Positions 52,464 to 59,975 of a stretch of DNA of 64,000 bases are shown one piece after another. The stretch comes from a virus. Taxonomy: Duplodnaviria; Caudoviricetes. The position numbers and the translations under genes were made by a program. The notes below the pieces were generated by a model. The model saw nothing but the letters and a program-made list of their open reading frames with translations. It had not been told where the DNA came from and made no database searches. Position 1 is the stretch's first letter. Each line of letters opens with the position of its first letter. The stretch covers positions 1 through 64,000 of IMG/VR virus record IMGVR_UViG_3300028907_000004; one strand, given 5' to 3'.

Positions 52464-52817
52464 GTGGCCAGACGAAAACCGCCGAAGACGAAGGAAATCA
52501 CGCTCAAAGAGCTTCTGTATAAAATACGGAAGACCTATGACGACGCCATAGACGAACTACGCAAGGAACAGGAACAGAAATTGCGGGAAGCCATTACCAA
52601 ATTCTGCCCACTTCCCAAAGAAAAAGAGTTTCTTGTGGCGGATTACTCCTTCAAAGGGAAAACTTTCCAATACAAAGACTTTCGGCATCAATGGGGCGAT
52701 GTTATTCTGTTCGGCGGGACGCTTCGTAATAATGGCGAAGTATCAGAAAAACAGTATTGCGAGTCCAGAATCAACACCGAGCATATAAAAATCACAGTAC
52801 CCGCAGAGGAAGAGTAA
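52464..52817 (+). CDS. Hypothetical protein
   Basis: GGAGG RBS; GTG start. Confidence 0.55.
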   Translation: MARRKPPKTKEITLKELLYKIRKTYDDAIDELRKEQEQKLREAITKFCPLPKEKEFLVADYSFKGKTFQYKDFRHQWGDVILFGGTLRNNGEVSEKQYCESRINTEHIKITVPAEEE

Positions 52818-55429
52818 TGGCCGGATTCTTTCAGAAGGATGACGTATCACACGGAGCTAGGGTCAAGCCCAAGCAAAAAGTCGAAGCGTTTGGAACTTGC
52901 GAGACTTGCGGGCTGTATGAATATGGAAATTCCGTCAAACCCTTTGGAGAGAACAGAAAGCGCATAATGATTGTGACCGAAACCCCTTCAGAAGGGGAGG
53001 CCCGAAAAGGCAAGATGTGGTCTGGGGAGCAAGGGCAGCTTCTCCGATCCATTTTGCGCGAGAACGGAATTGACCTGAATCGGGATTGCGTGTCCATCTA
53101 CGCAGTACGATGTAACATTCCAGAAGACCGCAACCCCCAACCCAACGAAGTTATCGGGTGTCGGGATAAACTGTTCAAAGCCATCGAGAAATACGAGCCT
53201 AGACTGGTCGTATCATTGGGCTATTTTGCTTTGTTTGCTCTTATAGGGCATCGGATGGGCGACGGGCTGGGCGGCACGCTTGATCGCTGGAGAGGGGCCA
53301 AAATTCCGTATCACGAAATCGGAGCGTGGCTGTGTCCTACATTCCATCCTATCTACGTGATGGCAAACGAGAAAAACCCCAACGTCGAACTCTACTGGGA
53401 ACGGGACATCAAGAATGCTATATGCCAGCTGGACAAAGAACTTCCAAATCCCATTAACGAAGATTCGGTTGACGTTTTGGTGGAGCCGAAAGACATCAAA
53501 GATCGGCTTGGTTATCTCCTTTCCCGTCCAGACGAAATCAGAGCCGCAGTAGACTGGGAAACAACGGGCCTGAAGCCCCATGCCAAGGGGCACCGCATCT
53601 TTACCGCCGGATTTTCTACGGGGCTTGATAACACATTTGCCTTTAAGATGGAACCGCAGTACCGGGAACCGCTCATACAAATCGCCAAAAGCCGAACCGT
53701 GGCGAAAATAGCGGCCAACATGAAATTCGAAGATACGTGGGCCCGGCAATGCCTGGGGACACATATCAACAATTGGTATTGGGACACTATGGTTGCGCAG
53801 CATGTTATCGACAACCGCCGTTACATTACCGGCCTCAAATTCCAATCCGCTGTCCGTTATGGCGTATGGGATTATGATTCTGAAATCTCTCCTTACTTGA
53901 GGGCCGAAGACGAAAGCAACGCAAACGCCTTCAACCGCATATATCAGGCCCCCTTACCGAAACTGCTAAAGTACAACGGTATGGACTGCCTACTTGAGTT
54001 CCTTCTCCATGAAGATCAGATTTCCGAAGTAAACGAACAAGGCACTATGGACGGCTACATGCTATTACATGCCGGAATACTTGCGCTGTCCGATATGGAA
54101 TGGCGCGGCCTTCCGGTAGAAGATACGCACGTGGTCCAAGAGATCAGACGCCTTGAACAGGAAGTCGCAGAAATCGAACAAAGCATATGGGCGTCCAAAG
54201 AAGGGAAGAAATGGAAAAAGAAGTATGGAACGGACGCCAATTGGAATAGTAATCAGCAGTTTGTAGAAGTGCTTTCTGAATGCGGCGTAGAGTTTGAAAA
54301 GAAGACCGCCAGTGGGCAGTTCGCCGCCGACAAGGGCGTTCTGGAGATGTTGGACCATCCCATTGCGAAGCAAATCCTACGTGCCAGAAAGCTGACGAAG
54401 AACGGGGGAACATTCCTGGCCAATATCCGGAAAGAGGCCGTAAGTGGCTCTCTCCATCCAATACACAACCTTCACAAGGTTATCACATTTCGGTCTTCCT
54501 GCGAATCCCCGAACACGCAGAACATGCCTAAACGTGACGAAGAGTCCATGAAGATCGTCCGGGCGTCCTTTCGCGCCCCGAAGGGTAAGTGTATTGCTGA
54601 AATCGACTATTCCGGTGTTGAGGTCCGGGTGGGGTGTTGCTACCACCGGGACAAAAATATGGAGCGGTACATTCTCGACACTTCTACCGACATGCATAGG
54701 GACGAAGCCTGTTCCATATTTTGTTTTGATCCCTATTACATCAACACTGAAGTAATTCAGGGAAGCGACGACTTGGCCCAGAAATACTTCAAGGCGATTC
54801 GAAACAGCGCAAAAAACGGATGGGTCTTTGCCCAGTTCTATGGTGACTGGTACAAGGCTTGTGCGAAGAACATCTGGAATCAGATCACTCACTGGAACCT
54901 CAAGGCCCCGGACGGACGGCCCTTGTTTGACCATCTCCGAAAACAGGGAATCAAAAACCTCAAGGATTTCGAATCCCATCTCAAGGACTGTGAGCGGAAA
55001 CTCTGGGAAGAACGCTTTGGTGGGTACGGTAAGTGGAAGGAGAAGACCTGGAAGAAGTATATGAAACAGGGCTACCTGGACACCTATACGGGTATGCGGT
55101 TGTCGGCCCTTTCCTCCAGAAATGAAATCCTCAATGCCCCGATCCAGGGAAGCGCGTTCCACTGCCTGTTATGGTCCGTTATTGAAATGAACAAGAAGCT
55201 CAAGAAGGAAAAGTGGGAAACCGTGCCAGTAGCCCAGATTCATGACTCTTGTATTTTCATAACCACTCCTGACGAGATAGATGAATTGTATAAAGTAGCA
55301 CACGAGATAATGTGCGTAAAGATTGTAAAACACTGGCCCTGGCTAGTCATTCCACTTGAAATAGATATGGACATTACAGAACCGGGAGGGGCCTGGAGTG
55401 AGCAAGAGTCCTATAAGCCCACAAAATAG
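52817..55429 (+). CDS. polA: Family A DNA polymerase with N-terminal UDG-like domain
   Basis: UDG4-like CETC...RC...GC and TFHPIYV; exonuclease DWETTG; polymerase DYSGVEVRV, RNSAKNGWVFAQFYG, QIHDS. Confidence 0.92.
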   Translation: MAGFFQKDDVSHGARVKPKQKVEAFGTCETCGLYEYGNSVKPFGENRKRIMIVTETPSEGEARKGKMWSGEQGQLLRSILRENGIDLNRDCVSIYAVRCNIPEDRNPQPNEVIGCRDKLFKAIEKYEPRLVVSLGYFALFALIGHRMGDGLGGTLDRWRGAKIPYHEIGAWLCPTFHPIYVMANEKNPNVELYWERDIKNAICQLDKELPNPINEDSVDVLVEPKDIKDRLGYLLSRPDEIRAAVDWETTGLKPHAKGHRIFTAGFSTGLDNTFAFKMEPQYREPLIQIAKSRTVAKIAANMKFEDTWARQCLGTHINNWYWDTMVAQHVIDNRRYITGLKFQSAVRYGVWDYDSEISPYLRAEDESNANAFNRIYQAPLPKLLKYNGMDCLLEFLLHEDQISEVNEQGTMDGYMLLHAGILALSDMEWRGLPVEDTHVVQEIRRLEQEVAEIEQSIWASKEGKKWKKKYGTDANWNSNQQFVEVLSECGVEFEKKTASGQFAADKGVLEMLDHPIAKQILRARKLTKNGGTFLANIRKEAVSGSLHPIHNLHKVITFRSSCESPNTQNMPKRDEESMKIVRASFRAPKGKCIAEIDYSGVEVRVGCCYHRDKNMERYILDTSTDMHRDEACSIFCFDPYYINTEVIQGSDDLAQKYFKAIRNSAKNGWVFAQFYGDWYKACAKNIWNQITHWNLKAPDGRPLFDHLRKQGIKNLKDFESHLKDCERKLWEERFGGYGKWKEKTWKKYMKQGYLDTYTGMRLSALSSRNEILNAPIQGSAFHCLLWSVIEMNKKLKKEKWETVPVAQIHDSCIFITTPDEIDELYKVAHEIMCVKIVKHWPWLVIPLEIDMDITEPGGAWSEQESYKPTK

Positions 55430-56204
55430 CAAACGAATTCGTTTGGTGCTTACAAAACGTACAGATTTGCGCCTTTTGATACGAATGGAAGATCACTATT
55501 CAAAACCACAAGGTTTTGTAGGAAGAAATTTATGTTATGCTGTGTATTGCGATAACGCCTATTATGGACACATAGTGGCCGGGTCCGCTACCAAGCACTT
55601 GTCTGGAAGGCATGAATTTCTAGGAACCACACAAGAACAGCTTAACAATATAGTGAACAACATCTTTTTTAATGTGTCCCCAGTCGAAGGAAAGTATCCA
55701 TTTAGAAATTTTACATCTGCTGTTGTAAAAGAATTTGTAAAAAAAGTAAAAGTGGATTGGCCTAGATTTTATCAAGATTCTGTGCTAGGGTTTGAAACGC
55801 TTGTAGAACTCCCAAGAAAAGGAACACTATACCTACGCGCTGGTTGGTCTGTTGTCGGTCAAACAAAAGGCTACACGTGCAAAAGAACTGCCGGCACAGG
55901 AACGGACTCTTGGAGTGGAAAGCGGGTTTGGAATACCGATCCGGAACAATTACGCCCTAAATTGATATTGTGTTTTCGAGTAAAACCAAAAAGGAGAAAC
56001 CATCATGCCCCTTCACTTGGACCATCGTCCCAAAACCCTCAAGAAGGTTGTAGGCCAGGGCGCGACGGTAGCTGCCCTCAAGGCGGTACTGGAACGCGAC
56101 GACATCCCGCACGCCTTCCTCTTCCACGGCCCGTCCGGGTGCGGAAAGACCACCCTGGCCAGAATCGTAGCCAAAAAGCTGGGATGTTCGGAAATGGATA
56201 TTAA
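55398..56204 (+). CDS. DUF4338 (DruA)/Mom-like GNAT protein
   Basis: IVNNIFF...NFTSAVV...DWPRFYQDSVLGFETLVELPRKGTLYLRAGWSVVGQTKG; AT-rich; C-terminus overlaps dnaX. Confidence 0.6.
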   Translation: MSKSPISPQNSKRIRLVLTKRTDLRLLIRMEDHYSKPQGFVGRNLCYAVYCDNAYYGHIVAGSATKHLSGRHEFLGTTQEQLNNIVNNIFFNVSPVEGKYPFRNFTSAVVKEFVKKVKVDWPRFYQDSVLGFETLVELPRKGTLYLRAGWSVVGQTKGYTCKRTAGTGTDSWSGKRVWNTDPEQLRPKLILCFRVKPKRRNHHAPSLGPSSQNPQEGCRPGRDGSCPQGGTGTRRHPARLPLPRPVRVRKDHPGQNRSQKAGMFGNGY

Positions 56205-58068
56205 GGAGTTGAACGTGGCGGATGTGCGCGGTATCGACTCTGTGCGCGAAATTACCCGTTCCATGATGCTTCGGCCCATGGGGGGAAATGCGCGTGTGTG
56301 GATTCTTGACGAATGCTTTCCTGCCAACACCCCAATAACTACGCCGACTGGAGAAAAGCCCATACAGGAATTAGTGGAAGGGGATTCTGTATGCTCTCTG
56401 TTTGGAAAAAACGACGTTGTGGAAAAAACATTTAGAAAAGAAATTCCTCTCAGCAGGGTTGTTCGGATTGACTTTTCCAACGGGAAGGTTCTTTTTTGTT
56501 CGGACCACCACCAGTTCTTTACCCCGGACGGTTGGAAGTTCGCAAAAGACTTGATTTCTGGGGACTTTACTTTTAGCATCCTTCGTAATACTATGGGAGA
56601 AAACGGAGGACTTTATGAAGAGGTACAAGAGAACTATTTGTGTGGTGTGCCGAACGAAGCTCAAGCCCCACCAGAAAGTTTGCTGTTCGATAGCGTGTCG
56701 AAGTCGTTTGCGGGTAACGAAAAAGACCAGACTGTGCGAATACTGCCAAGTGAAAAAGATACCATATTACCCGAATCGTCAGGAGAAGTACAACCGGAAA
56801 TACTGCTCTCTTCAATGTCTGGCAGCAGCGAAAATGGAGAATCCGGAGTTTCGGAAAAAGCTCCACAATCCGGAAGTGTCGCAGAAGATAGCCTTGGCGC
56901 AGAAGGCTTTTTATTCGACAGAAGCGGGGAAAGCGGAAGCGCAGAAAATATCTATTCGCATGCGAACGAACAACCCTATGGAGAGTGCGGATGTTGTAGA
57001 AAAAATGCGAGTGACGAAAGAGCGGAACGGAACGTTGCGCCTACCGCCGAAGATTCGTGGTGGGAACGGTCAATTAACGCTTCCCCAGAAAACACTTCAT
57101 GGGCTTCTGGGTCCGGATTGGAAAGCGGAGTTTGTGGTGAATACGGGAGTAAAGAGAATGTGGAGCCGTCCCATTTACCCCAATCATTACAAACTGGACT
57201 TGGCGCTTCCGGGACTGCTTCTTTGCGTAGAGGTAGACGGAGCGAATCACAGAACGAAGCTGATTTCCTCTCAAGATCAGAAAAAGACGGAATTTCTGAA
57301 AGGGTTAGGGTGGACCGTATTACGTGTTACGAACGAGGAGGTAATGACGAACTCTTCCTTGGTGTTGTCGAAGATACAGAAAGAAGTAACGGCTTTGTTA
57401 CGATGTACGACGTAACAGTAACGGGCCACCCTAGCTACTTTGCAAATGGTTTCGCGGTACACAATTGTCACGCCATGAGCAAGGACGCGCAGAACGCGCT
57501 TCTCAAGCCGCTGGAAGATTGCCCCGACCACGTGTATTTCATGTTGTGTACTACCGATCCCCAGAAGCTCATTGCTACCATCCGGAATCGGTGTTCGCAG
57601 TTCGCCCTTACTCTTGTTTCCGACGAAGACTTGGCCGACTTGTTGAACGCCGTAGCCGCAAAAGAAGGCGTGGAAATTCCCGAATCGGTCATCAACAGTA
57701 TCGTGTCCGCTTCCGGGGGATCGCCGCGTGCCGCCCTGGTCCACCTGGATAAGGTCAAGGACTTGCCCGAAGATGAGATGGAAAAGGCCGTTTCCCGAAT
57801 CGACACCAACGCTTCTGCCGCCATTGACCTTTGCCGGGCCTTGTTGAAAGATAAGCCCAATTGGTCCGAAATCGCCAAGGTACTGTCGAACCTTTCCGGG
57901 GGAGAACCGGAGCAGATCAGGATGGCTGTATTGGGCTACTGTAACGCCATCCTGCTGAAGGGGAAGTTCAACGGAAGGGCGTGCTTGGTTATGGAGTGTT
58001 TCAAAGACCCCTTTTACAATGACGGCAAGTTCCGTCTTACTCTTGCTTGCGCCGCTTCAGTGGCGTAG
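56005..58068 (+). CDS. dnaX: Clamp loader gamma/tau-like ATPase, intein-containing
   Basis: HRPKTLKKVVGQ, FHGPSGCGKTT, ILDE|CH after splicing, DAQNALLKPLE, IRNRC. Confidence 0.9.
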   Translation: MPLHLDHRPKTLKKVVGQGATVAALKAVLERDDIPHAFLFHGPSGCGKTTLARIVAKKLGCSEMDIKELNVADVRGIDSVREITRSMMLRPMGGNARVWILDECFPANTPITTPTGEKPIQELVEGDSVCSLFGKNDVVEKTFRKEIPLSRVVRIDFSNGKVLFCSDHHQFFTPDGWKFAKDLISGDFTFSILRNTMGENGGLYEEVQENYLCGVPNEAQAPPESLLFDSVSKSFAGNEKDQTVRILPSEKDTILPESSGEVQPEILLSSMSGSSENGESGVSEKAPQSGSVAEDSLGAEGFLFDRSGESGSAENIYSHANEQPYGECGCCRKNASDERAERNVAPTAEDSWWERSINASPENTSWASGSGLESGVCGEYGSKENVEPSHLPQSLQTGLGASGTASLRRGRRSESQNEADFLSRSEKDGISERVRVDRITCYERGGNDELFLGVVEDTERSNGFVTMYDVTVTGHPSYFANGFAVHNCHAMSKDAQNALLKPLEDCPDHVYFMLCTTDPQKLIATIRNRCSQFALTLVSDEDLADLLNAVAAKEGVEIPESVINSIVSASGGSPRAALVHLDKVKDLPEDEMEKAVSRIDTNASAAIDLCRALLKDKPNWSEIAKVLSNLSGGEPEQIRMAVLGYCNAILLKGKFNGRACLVMECFKDPFYNDGKFRLTLACAASVA
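56314..57465 (+). mobile_element. Intein (384 aa) in dnaX Walker B
   Basis: Starts CFPANTPI, block B CSDHHQF, ends MYDVTVTGHPSYFANGFAVHN, +1 extein Cys. Confidence 0.92.
56615..57415 (+). CDS. DUF559/Vsr-like endonuclease nested out of frame inside the intein
   Basis: Own GGAGGA RBS 4 nt upstream; CxxC repeats; YKLDLAL...CVEVDGANH...DQKKTEFLKGLGWTVLRVTNEEV. Confidence 0.85.
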   Translation: MKRYKRTICVVCRTKLKPHQKVCCSIACRSRLRVTKKTRLCEYCQVKKIPYYPNRQEKYNRKYCSLQCLAAAKMENPEFRKKLHNPEVSQKIALAQKAFYSTEAGKAEAQKISIRMRTNNPMESADVVEKMRVTKERNGTLRLPPKIRGGNGQLTLPQKTLHGLLGPDWKAEFVVNTGVKRMWSRPIYPNHYKLDLALPGLLLCVEVDGANHRTKLISSQDQKKTEFLKGLGWTVLRVTNEEVMTNSSLVLSKIQKEVTALLRCTT

Positions 58069-58673: not shown

Positions 58674-59975
58674 ATGTCCAGTATGAGAGATCGGTTCAAA
58701 AAGCGCGCAAAGGAAGGGGCCCAGAAGGGGTTCTCTGTTCAGCTTCCCGAAGACGTCAAGCGGTTTGCCCCTAAAAAGGGAACGTACAAGCTGGACGTAA
58801 TTCCCTACACAGTTTCCGCCAAGAAGCACCCGGACGGCGTAGCCGCTGGCGAGCTTTGGTGCCGCCGCCCCTTCCTGATTCACTACGGAATCGGTGTGGA
58901 CAACAAGCCCCAGGTGTGCCCCCGCACTATCGGCAAGCCCTGCCCCATCTGCGAATACTACGAGCGCGAAAGGAAACGCCCTGGTGCGGATGAAGACGCA
59001 CTGAAGGAAATCCGCGCCAAGGCCAGGGAACTGTACAACGTCATCGACTTGGACAACGAGGATGACGGCATTCAGGTTCTCGAAATGTCCTACCATCTGT
59101 TTGGTAAGCTGCTGGAAAACGAGATCAACGAAGCCGACGATGACGAGGTTGCCGGCTTCGCGGAACTGAAGGGCGGCAAGACCCTCAAGGTGCGCTTTTC
59201 CGAATCTTCGATGGGTACCAACAAGTTCCTGGAAGCCACCCGAATCGACTTCCTGGACCGCGACGACTACAAGAAGTCGATTCTTGATGACGTTGTGGAC
59301 CTCGACACCGTCTTCAACATCCTGCCCTACGAGGAACTGGAAGCCGTCTTCCTTGAGGATGAAGGGGCCGGCATGGCCGCAGATGACGATGACGACGAAA
59401 AGCCCAAGTCGAAGTCCAAGAAAAAGTCCTATAAGGACGACGATGACGACGATGATGAGGCCCCCAAGACCAAGAAGCGGTCCAAGTCTGATGACGACGA
59501 TGACGACGATGAAAAGCCCAAGTCCCGTCGCTCTTCCAAGAAGGAAGAACCGGAAGATGACGAGGACGAGGACGAGGCCCCCAAGTCCCGCCGTTCCGCA
59601 AAGAAGGCCGCGCCGGAAGACGACGATGACGACGAAAAGCCCAAGTCCAGACGTTCTGCCAAAAAGGCCCAGCCTGACGCCGATGACGCCGATGACGACG
59701 CCGATGAAAAGCCCAAGCGCAAAGCGTCTTCCAAGAAGGCCGATGACGATGACGATGACGACGAGCCCAAGGCAAAGTCCAAGGCCAAGAAAAAGCCTGA
59801 ACCCGACGATGACGATGACGACGAGCCCAAGGCCAAGAAGGGCAAGGGCGGGAAGTCTGCCGGCGGTGAATGTCCGTTGAGCAACGGCACCTTCGGAAAG
59901 GACTTCAACAAGTTCGATGAGTGCGACGACTGTGAAGTCTGGTCCGAGTGCGGCAAGGCCAAAAAAGCTAAATAA
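58674..59975 (+). CDS. gp32-like single-stranded DNA-binding protein with long repetitive tail
   Basis: RPFLIHY...VCPRTIGKPCPICEY; about 200 aa of D-run/K-rich repeats. Confidence 0.75.
   Translation: MSSMRDRFKKRAKEGAQKGFSVQLPEDVKRFAPKKGTYKLDVIPYTVSAKKHPDGVAAGELWCRRPFLIHYGIGVDNKPQVCPRTIGKPCPICEYYERERKRPGADEDALKEIRAKARELYNVIDLDNEDDGIQVLEMSYHLFGKLLENEINEADDDEVAGFAELKGGKTLKVRFSESSMGTNKFLEATRIDFLDRDDYKKSILDDVVDLDTVFNILPYEELEAVFLEDEGAGMAADDDDDEKPKSKSKKKSYKDDDDDDDEAPKTKKRSKSDDDDDDDEKPKSRRSSKKEEPEDDEDEDEAPKSRRSAKKAAPEDDDDDEKPKSRRSAKKAQPDADDADDDADEKPKRKASSKKADDDDDDDEPKAKSKAKKKPEPDDDDDDEPKAKKGKGGKSAGGECPLSNGTFGKDFNKFDECDDCEVWSECGKAKKAK

Follow-up and report, generated by a model that had tools for sequence, protein, structure and literature searches.

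The DNA analysed here (hereafter the window, 64,000 nucleotides) corresponds to positions 1 to 64,000 of the IMG/VR virus record IMGVR_UViG_3300028907_000004 (Duplodnaviria; Caudoviricetes), which comprises 78,463 bases and has a completeness rating of 100%. A clamp-loader gene on its plus strand is interrupted within the codons of the Walker B motif by a stretch with the features of an intein, and a nuclease gene is written on the same bases in another reading frame. We consider it very probable that this is a mobile class-1 intein at the clamp-loader Walker B motif (DE/CH; slashes mark the intein borders throughout) and that a separate gene, overprinted on it in the +1 frame, encodes its homing endonuclease. 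The features of the locus are listed below, with positions counted from the first base of the window (ORF, open reading frame; aa, amino acids; nt, nucleotides; pLDDT, predicted local distance difference test; dN/dS, ratio of nonsynonymous to synonymous substitution rates).

56005-58068, plus strand: clamp-loader (DnaX/gp44-like AAA+) precursor ORF, 687 aa without interruption (phrog_5846, PF13177)
56005-56313, plus strand: N-extein, 103 aa, with Walker A GPSGCGKT and Walker B up to WILDE
56314-57465, plus strand: class-1 intein, 384 aa, with C1, block B S63xxH66 and C-terminal HN, followed by Cys+1
56314-56592, plus strand: N-terminal HINT splicing domain, intein residues 1-93, pLDDT above 90, Foldseek match to the gp41-1 intein 6QAZ (E 3e-6)
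56593-57288, plus strand: linker in the intein frame, about 232 aa rich in S, E and G, pLDDT 41-57, reading through the nuclease gene without a stop
56605-56610, plus strand: Shine-Dalgarno-like GGAGGA, 4 nt upstream of the nuclease ATG
56615-57415, plus strand: putative homing-endonuclease gene in the +1 frame, 266 aa plus stop, pLDDT 91.9, dN/dS 0.17
56639-56818, plus strand: two CxxC...CSxxC zinc fingers of the FCS/MYM type, nuclease residues 9-28 and 41-68 (FCS finger 2L8E, profile E 6.5e-4)
57059-57412, plus strand: Vsr-like/DUF559 catalytic domain, nuclease residues 149-266, with invariant E206, D208, H212, D221 and K224
57289-57465, plus strand: C-terminal HINT splicing domain, pLDDT above 94 from residue 330
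57466-58068, plus strand: C-extein, 200 aa plus stop, beginning CHAMSKDAQNALLKPLED

Host gene and intein

The precursor ORF matched the PHROG clamp-loader family phrog_5846 (E 2.5e-66) as well as the Pfam families DNA_pol3_delta2 (PF13177) and Intein_splicing, the latter with a match split over residues 119-487 and a score of 41.5 bits (cut-off 35.8). The host frame is free of stops from 56005 to 58065, and the intein frame is thus continuous with the host protein. The insertion point lies in Walker B (ILDE/C...HN/CH): the first intein residue, a Cys encoded at 56314, directly follows ILDE, and the terminal His-Asn (57460-57465) is followed by Cys-His. An initial annotation of this DNA had described a DnaX frame that stays open through a 384-aa intein (C...HN/C, 56314-57465) and a dual-coding element in the clamp-loader Walker B motif, and both descriptions were confirmed. 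When the intein is removed, the exteins add up to 103 + 200 = 303 residues, and the clamp loader of a related phage without the intein (L088) has exactly this length.

All class-1 motifs are present, i.e., C1, S63-x-x-H66, H383-N384 and the C+1 nucleophile, and in an alignment of 70 intein sequences C1 and N384 were invariant and H66 nearly so. In the AlphaFold model of the intein frame, residues 1-93 and 330-384 were predicted with confidence (pLDDT above 90), and the residues between them (pLDDT 41-57) were disordered. This linker (about intein residues 94-326) contains 38 S, 32 E and 26 G among 233 residues, in agreement with the featureless S/E/G-rich centre noted initially. A Foldseek search with the intein model returned 34 intein/Hint chains at E ≤ 1e-3, of which gp41-1 (6QAZ, 3e-6) was the best. 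The gp41-1 intein reportedly belongs to the set of Dassa et al. from 2009. Based on its motifs and modelled fold, the 384-aa element looks like a splicing-competent class-1 mini-intein.

Nuclease encoded in the +1 frame

The protein encoded in the +1 frame matched Pfam DUF559 (PF04480) with an E-value of 2.8e-12 (46.9 bits, cut-off 20.6), and its AlphaFold model reached a mean pLDDT of 91.9. Residues 149-266 were superposed on the DUF559 protein 3HRL with a Z score of 13.7 (root-mean-square deviation 1.2 Å over 88 residues), on the homing endonuclease I-Bth0305I (3R3P) with a Z score of 12.0 (2.4 Å over 92 residues), and on Vsr (1CW0) with a Z score of 10.3. While phmmer with the nuclease against the PDB yielded 3HRL alone, I-Bth0305I was reached by profile and fold searches; the E-values of the family profile were 3e-14 for 3HRL, 4.6e-4 for 3R3P, and 6.5e-4 for the FCS-type finger 2L8E, the last one at the N-terminal CxxC...CSxxC units. 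These zinc fingers are presumed to be the DNA-binding part of the nuclease. No Pfam match to a NUMOD was obtained in the N-terminal part, which in this respect differs from the NUMOD/helix-turn-helix (HTH) type of I-Bth0305I. Among 79 nuclease sequences, fourteen columns were invariant, including E206, D208, H212, D221 and K224. In the hidden Markov model (HMM) alignment, the 3R3P chain has N and W at the positions of D208 and H212, for which a crystallisation mutant and an alignment effect are both possible reasons. By sequence and modelled structure, the +1 protein is assigned to the DUF559/Vsr-like superfamily, with a catalytic domain homologous to that of I-Bth0305I. The ORF (56615-57415), its CxxC repeats, its nuclease type and the upstream GGAGGA had all been recognized in the initial annotation and were recovered here by the Pfam score, the finger assignment and the fold matches.

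The nuclease gene ends 50 nt before the end of the intein, and the motif that is most conserved in the nuclease, GWTVLRV, shares its bases with the first strand of the C-terminal splicing domain (RVRVDRI).

Selection on both reading frames

In the +1 phase, a stop can arise in the intein frame only where a nuclease codon with T in third position precedes one that begins with AA, AG or GA. Since NNT and NNC always encode the same amino acid, every such stop can be eliminated without any change to the nuclease protein. If the overlap were in the other same-strand phase, Met codons before a codon that begins with A would produce an unavoidable TGA.

In the window nuclease, none of the 73 codons in risky contexts (i.e., before AA, AG or GA) ends in T, compared to 55 of 193 codons elsewhere (Fisher p 2.9e-9). 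Codon shuffles and synonymous resamplings of the gene introduced 10-15 stops on average, and 0/20000 left the intein frame open; the third frame across the gene contains 18 stops. The same pattern was found across 74 unique loci, where T-ending codons occupied 0/5861 risky contexts but 29% of the others and C/(C+T) was 1.00 versus 0.30. Shuffles of these loci led to an expectation of 16 stops per locus, of which none was observed, and the third frame had a mean of 23. Free-standing homologues served as natural controls and carried 33 (L006) and 28 (L089) stops in the corresponding frame; a third one (L092) had just 1 stop over 190 codons. The open intein frame is thus not due to chance, and selection keeps both frames open, as had been proposed in the initial annotation.

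Frame-specific dN/dS, which had been suggested as a check, was calculated against a sister phage on a Logan contig (L004). Across the overlap, amino-acid identity between the nuclease frames was 66% and that between the intein frames 41%, dN/dS was 0.17 and 1.45, respectively, and substitutions at nuclease codon positions 1/2/3 numbered 71/60/123. Closer pairs gave the same picture: for L001 and L003, the counts by codon position were 3/0/32, with a dN/dS of 0.03 in the nuclease frame versus 1.77 in the intein frame. Because dN/dS is low in the nuclease frame only and substitutions are in excess at third positions, the nuclease protein is under purifying selection. The protein sequence of the linker evolves near-neutrally and is constrained only to remain open, and its few seemingly conserved positions are shadows of nuclease motifs.

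Distribution of the layout

A profile scan of IMG/VR retrieved 338 relatives, of which the best 80 were classified with HMMs for both intein ends and the nuclease; the best 80 of more than 553 relatives from a metagenome collection were likewise classified. Some contigs are common to both sets, and hence the two counts are not independent. Among 87 loci, 85 had an uninterrupted intein with the nuclease in +1, one nuclease was free-standing, and one locus was cut by the contig end. Of the best 80 metagenome loci, 73 were contiguous and in +1 and five were cut by contig ends; the remainder were L135, where the N-terminal match was weak yet no stop was present, and L144. In the latter (60-2110), a clamp-loader intein copy, a single indel within the nuclease gene disrupts the reading frames of nuclease and intein alike, which could be an assembly error or a decaying copy. 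Homologues that are usually interrupted in the intein frame, as expected for split inteins, were thus not encountered (85/87 and 73/80 loci uninterrupted).

The layout recurs in the sister phage (L004) and at an SNF2 helicase locus (L005). While blastn of the window gene against GenBank phages returned no match, tblastn detected nuclease homologues in Vibrio phages and in Pseudomonas phage MR14, each inside a single long annotated coding sequence (CDS). The host proteins are superfamily 2 (SF2) helicases with the intein at QDE/C...HN/CHH and the nuclease in +1; in the GenBank records concerned (Vibrio phages 1.088.O and 1.194.O, Pseudomonas phage MR14; loci L001, 1612-4314, L002, 1756-4329, and L003, 1612-4314), the helicase is given as a plain CDS, and intein and nuclease are unannotated.

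Host genes were clamp loaders (50), SNF2 helicases (22), ResIII/DEAD helicases (7) and a few others, with the insertion nearly always at DE/CH or DE/SH and displaced by two or three residues at a few sites. In 64 of the 85 loci, the nuclease has its own ATG, 80-106 codons into the intein, and a Shine-Dalgarno match of at least 4 nt; its stop lies 8-65 nt ahead of the intein end. The nuclease ORF is intact in 158 loci, at identities down to about 30%. The sequences surveyed indicate that phage inteins of this kind form a large family, most of it unannotated, in which the overprinted layout is the rule. The initial annotation, according to which out-of-frame intein endonucleases had been noted only rarely in phages, is revised in this respect. 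Inteins with such endonucleases were also reported in preprints of 2025-2026.

The SNF2 helicase precursor at L047 (1451-5365) seems to contain two inteins, the upstream one with an in-frame HNH_3 match (residues 388-430), followed by the +1 Vsr-type intein. Free-standing homologues of the nuclease were found at L006, L089 and L092. At L092 (2154-2723), the gene is located directly upstream of an uninterrupted ResIII/DEAD helicase gene, its stop abutting the helicase start, a position typical of intron-less, intein-less homing beside the target gene.

Mobility and origin of the element

Comparison of the window with the sister phage L004 gave DNA identities of 94-97% for polA, the two exteins and the gene that follows, but only 67-72% for both splicing domains and the nuclease, and the drop coincides with the intein borders. 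Intein alleles have thus been exchanged between near-identical phages. The related phage L088, whose C-extein is 89% identical, has an empty site (DE/AHQLSK) in an intein-less clamp-loader gene (L088, 2189-3100). The GC content is 0.43-0.50 in the intein versus 0.52-0.60 in the exteins. Because a divergent intein lies in near-identical flanks in L004 and the site is empty in L088, the sequence comparisons point to an actively mobile element, in line with the selfish unit that had been envisaged initially. The pairwise distances between nucleases correlate with those between splicing domains (Spearman 0.50, Mantel p 0.001), which fits a composite unit whose nuclease and splicing domain would move and diverge together.

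According to the initial annotation, a free-standing endonuclease gene invaded a mini-intein. Such an origin is plausible, since free-standing homologues exist (L006, L089, L092) and the splicing domain is most similar to the gp41-1 mini or split intein. It was, however, not a local event in this phage: the phase is +1 throughout, and nucleases and splicing domains have diverged in a correlated manner, both of which point to a composite element that is old and moves as one unit. In a quick nuclease tree with weak support, the window and L004 were placed among helicase-borne copies, apart from the main clamp-loader clade with its 38 members. A separate jump from helicases to clamp loaders is not claimed, as tree support was weak and the starred branches do not force more than one origin.

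Proposed homing cycle and alternative explanations

Ribosomes in the clamp-loader frame would read straight through the nuclease gene, so that the halves of the mini-intein would be tethered by ~232 disordered residues rich in S, E and G. The halves would then meet, fold and splice, releasing a clamp loader of 303 aa in which the DECH Walker B motif is intact. Other ribosomes would initiate at the internal GGAGGA/ATG and produce a 31-kDa endonuclease composed of the FCS zinc fingers and the Vsr-like (DUF559, EDxHD-related) domain. In a mixed infection, this endonuclease may cut intein-less alleles near the DE/AH codons, and repair would copy the whole intein into them.

The layout is held by two forces: purifying selection on the nuclease keeps the +1 frame, and the essential host gene bars stops in the 0 frame. 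We infer that the layout is stable and always in +1 because replacing T by C eliminates a stop and leaves the nuclease protein unaltered. For the constant +1 phase, common descent and this argument from the genetic code may both be explanations, and they are not mutually exclusive. More tentatively, and with slightly more doubt than belief, we suggest that the overlap is a selected design instead of a frozen accident. In such a design, an old family would carry its Vsr-like endonuclease obligatorily in +1 owing to NNT-to-NNC synonymy, internal initiation would throttle nuclease dosage, and the element would hop from one P-loop NTPase to another, unrelated one (clamp loaders, SNF2 helicases, DEAD-type helicases), with the DE/CH codons of Walker B as its sites.

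Several points weigh against an overprinted homing intein. Splicing, translation of the +1 frame and cleavage of empty sites are deduced from sequence and models. Initiation inside an actively translated ORF may be inefficient, and in the window the Shine-Dalgarno sequence is predicted to be paired (UCCUUCGU, 56579-56586, with ACGGAGGA, 56603-56610) at a probability of 0.97 (0.92 in L004). The loci examined were the best-scoring matches to a profile that was built mostly from overprinted copies, and a few metagenome copies (L111, L144, L163) carry a stop or an indel in the intein frame. Furthermore, the zinc-finger N-terminus is, judging from its sequence, unlike the NUMOD region of I-Bth0305I, the only characterised relative, and because these DNA-binding parts differ, target recognition would not be transferable from that enzyme.

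Regarding translational control, the predicted fold around the Shine-Dalgarno sequence of the window was no better than that of shuffles (z 0.30), and over 64 loci its pairing (0.58) was not above the control (0.53, p 0.14). A hairpin that sequesters the Shine-Dalgarno sequence, a control proposed for free-standing endonuclease genes, was rejected as a feature of the family by the shuffle and the 64-locus tests. A search for a sigma-70-like promoter inside the intein found none.

Four alternatives to an overprinted homing intein were weighed. The +1 protein might have been domesticated, so that it serves the phage (e.g., by cutting competitor or host DNA, or in repair) and not intein homing. 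DUF559/Vsr-like domains do occur in many non-homing contexts, and homologues of this nuclease are free-standing in phage genomes (L006, L089, L092). We nonetheless regard domestication as improbable, given that nuclease and splicing domain diverge together (Spearman 0.50, Mantel p 0.001), that the unit exchanged between sister phages is exactly the intein, that its presence or absence is polymorphic at one site, and that the nearest characterised relative is a homing enzyme.

A shade less probable again is a decaying remnant, i.e., a once free-standing gene inside a mini-intein that is now unexpressed or inactive, with only the host frame under selection. The homing-cycle model expects endonucleases to decay after fixation (10.64898/2026.09.14.751524), and the paired Shine-Dalgarno sequence in the window, together with expression that is deduced and not observed, would agree with such a remnant. 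A gene in decay is however difficult to reconcile with a nuclease-frame dN/dS of 0.17 and an excess of third-position substitutions, with an ORF that is intact in 158 loci down to ~30% identity and retains fourteen invariant columns (E, D, H, D and K among them), with a confident AlphaFold model of the nuclease, or with divergent intein alleles in the near-identical flanks of sister phages.

Programmed ribosomal frameshifting into +1 and back would yield a canonical intein with an embedded endonuclease domain. One conserved type of shift would be sufficient, as the phase is always +1, and the nuclease ORF begins just past the N-terminal splicing domain and ends within the C-terminal one. On the other hand, a bypassed 0 frame needs no freedom from stops, yet ~230-330 codons are open in 158 loci, and the nuclease has its own ATG and Shine-Dalgarno sequence in 64 of 85 loci. 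A second precise shift would also be required, since the nuclease stop precedes the intein end by 8-65 nt, and no conserved slippery site was noticed in passing, although no dedicated search was made. This explanation is therefore considered highly improbable.

The chance of an assembly or sequencing frameshift artefact, or of a split intein mis-read as contiguous, is practically negligible: the indel of L144 breaks both frames and two short contigs each have one intein-frame stop, but two compensating frameshifts would be needed in each of 158 loci from isolates (Vibrio phages, Pseudomonas phage MR14), IMG/VR, JGI, ENA and Logan, and the avoidance of T at synonymous sites is a biological signature.

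Neighbouring genes

Upstream of the clamp-loader gene, an ORF of about 200 aa (55398-56004, plus strand) occupies an insertion of ~570 bp between this gene and polA, which ends at 55429. The insertion is missing from L004 and L088, where the gap between polA and the clamp-loader gene is ~10 nt. The ORF has a low GC content (0.35-0.45 versus 0.5-0.6), and its reading frame runs open for ~200 nt further into the clamp-loader gene. Searches of Pfam and PHROGs with this ORF were without match; its neighbours in the ESM Atlas were phage clusters partly annotated as DruA (PF14236), with a score of 0.97. It may be a second gene that was recently acquired. The DNA polymerase A gene itself (52757-55429, plus strand) is an apparent fusion to an N-terminal uracil-DNA glycosylase (UDG)-like domain, and its L004 homologue matches PF03167 (UDG) and PF00476 (DNA_pol_A). 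Downstream, the C-terminal half of a 433-aa ORF (58674-59975, plus strand) consists of long alternating acidic/basic repeats (DDDDDDEKPKSKSKKK-like units) with a Cys-rich tail at the end; the opposite strand and other frames are open across this ORF, as such repeats would predict.

Implications and comparison with known systems

These nucleases are overlooked by annotation: GenBank phage records show one long CDS labelled "P-loop NTPase", "coil containing protein" or "putative helicase", and metagenome gene calls break the host gene into pieces. With hundreds of natural replicates of a ~0.7-kb dual-coding stretch and a quantifiable rule (no NNT before AA, AG or GA), the family is a clean system for studying how overlapping genes are maintained. 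It supports the acquisition of endonucleases by inteins from free-standing genes, and it represents a stable alternative to the split-intein outcome. Of practical use may be mini-inteins that tolerate disordered insertions of 230-330 aa, as well as a set of putatively active Vsr-type homing enzymes that would target Walker B codons of replication genes.

The window element shares the features of inteins with out-of-frame endonucleases, namely an ORF in another frame, an unstructured in-frame stretch and purifying selection. The general layout is already known from the 2025-2026 preprints; new here is the sense-strand +1 Vsr-like family, for which no description at Walker B was found in the literature searched, and its endonuclease type and orientation match none of the out-of-frame cases described (10.1101/2025.01.02.630785, 10.64898/2026.09.14.751524). 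Both preprints cite Gorbalenya 1998, which is quoted here through them for the cyanobacterial dnaX intein.

In actinobacteriophages, non-canonical inteins contain antisense LAGLIDADG, antisense VSR-like or same-strand frame-3 endonuclease VII-like genes and reside in DNA polymerase, minor capsid, terminase and thymidylate synthase genes (Gosselin, Arsenault and Gogarten, 10.1101/2025.01.02.630785). As in the family described here, the endonuclease lies between the splicing blocks in another frame, the in-frame stretch is structureless, invasion by a free-standing gene was proposed, and there is evidence for ongoing transfer. The present family differs in its VSR-like nuclease on the sense strand in +1 and in its hosts, which are clamp loaders and SF2/SNF2 helicases with the insertion at Walker B; the term "clamp loader" is never mentioned in that preprint (10.1101/2025.01.02.630785).

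The cyanobacterial dnaX intein, in which a LAGLIDADG endonuclease is encoded in a "+2 ORF" and frame-specific dN/dS was reported (Phillips, DeSimone and Gogarten, 10.64898/2026.09.14.751524), is similar in its clamp-loader family host, the disordered linker in the intein frame, the overlapping ORF with a Shine-Dalgarno sequence, the frame-dependent dN/dS and the secondary invasion of a mini-intein that was proposed. It is encoded in cellular genomes, whereas the DUF559/Vsr-like nucleases studied here are in +1 and in phages.

In fractured genes (Dassa et al. 2009, PMC2677866), the halves of a split intein flank a free-standing gene for a Vsr-like homing endonuclease. Phage replication genes are affected in these as well, with the Vsr-like gene on the same strand and its 3' end overlapping the C-terminal intein part. 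There, a stop, a non-coding spacer and a new start separate the halves, which splice in trans (PMC2677866), whereas the frame of the present intein is continuous and the intein is not split.

The ShiLan insertion in phage methylase genes contains a hidden out-of-frame HNH endonuclease (PMC11855218); unlike the family studied here, this insertion encodes an HNH nuclease and, according to the abstract, could not be identified as an intein.

I-Bth0305I, the prototype of the EDxHD (Vsr-like) homing endonucleases, is encoded by a group I intron within recA, and its DNA-binding motifs are of the NUMOD/HTH type (Taylor et al. 2011, PMC3239194; 3R3P). The nuclease of the window shares with it the C-terminal Vsr-like catalytic domain and the domain order, with the DNA-binding part followed by the nuclease, and differs from it in being overprinted on an intein and in its FCS-type zinc fingers.

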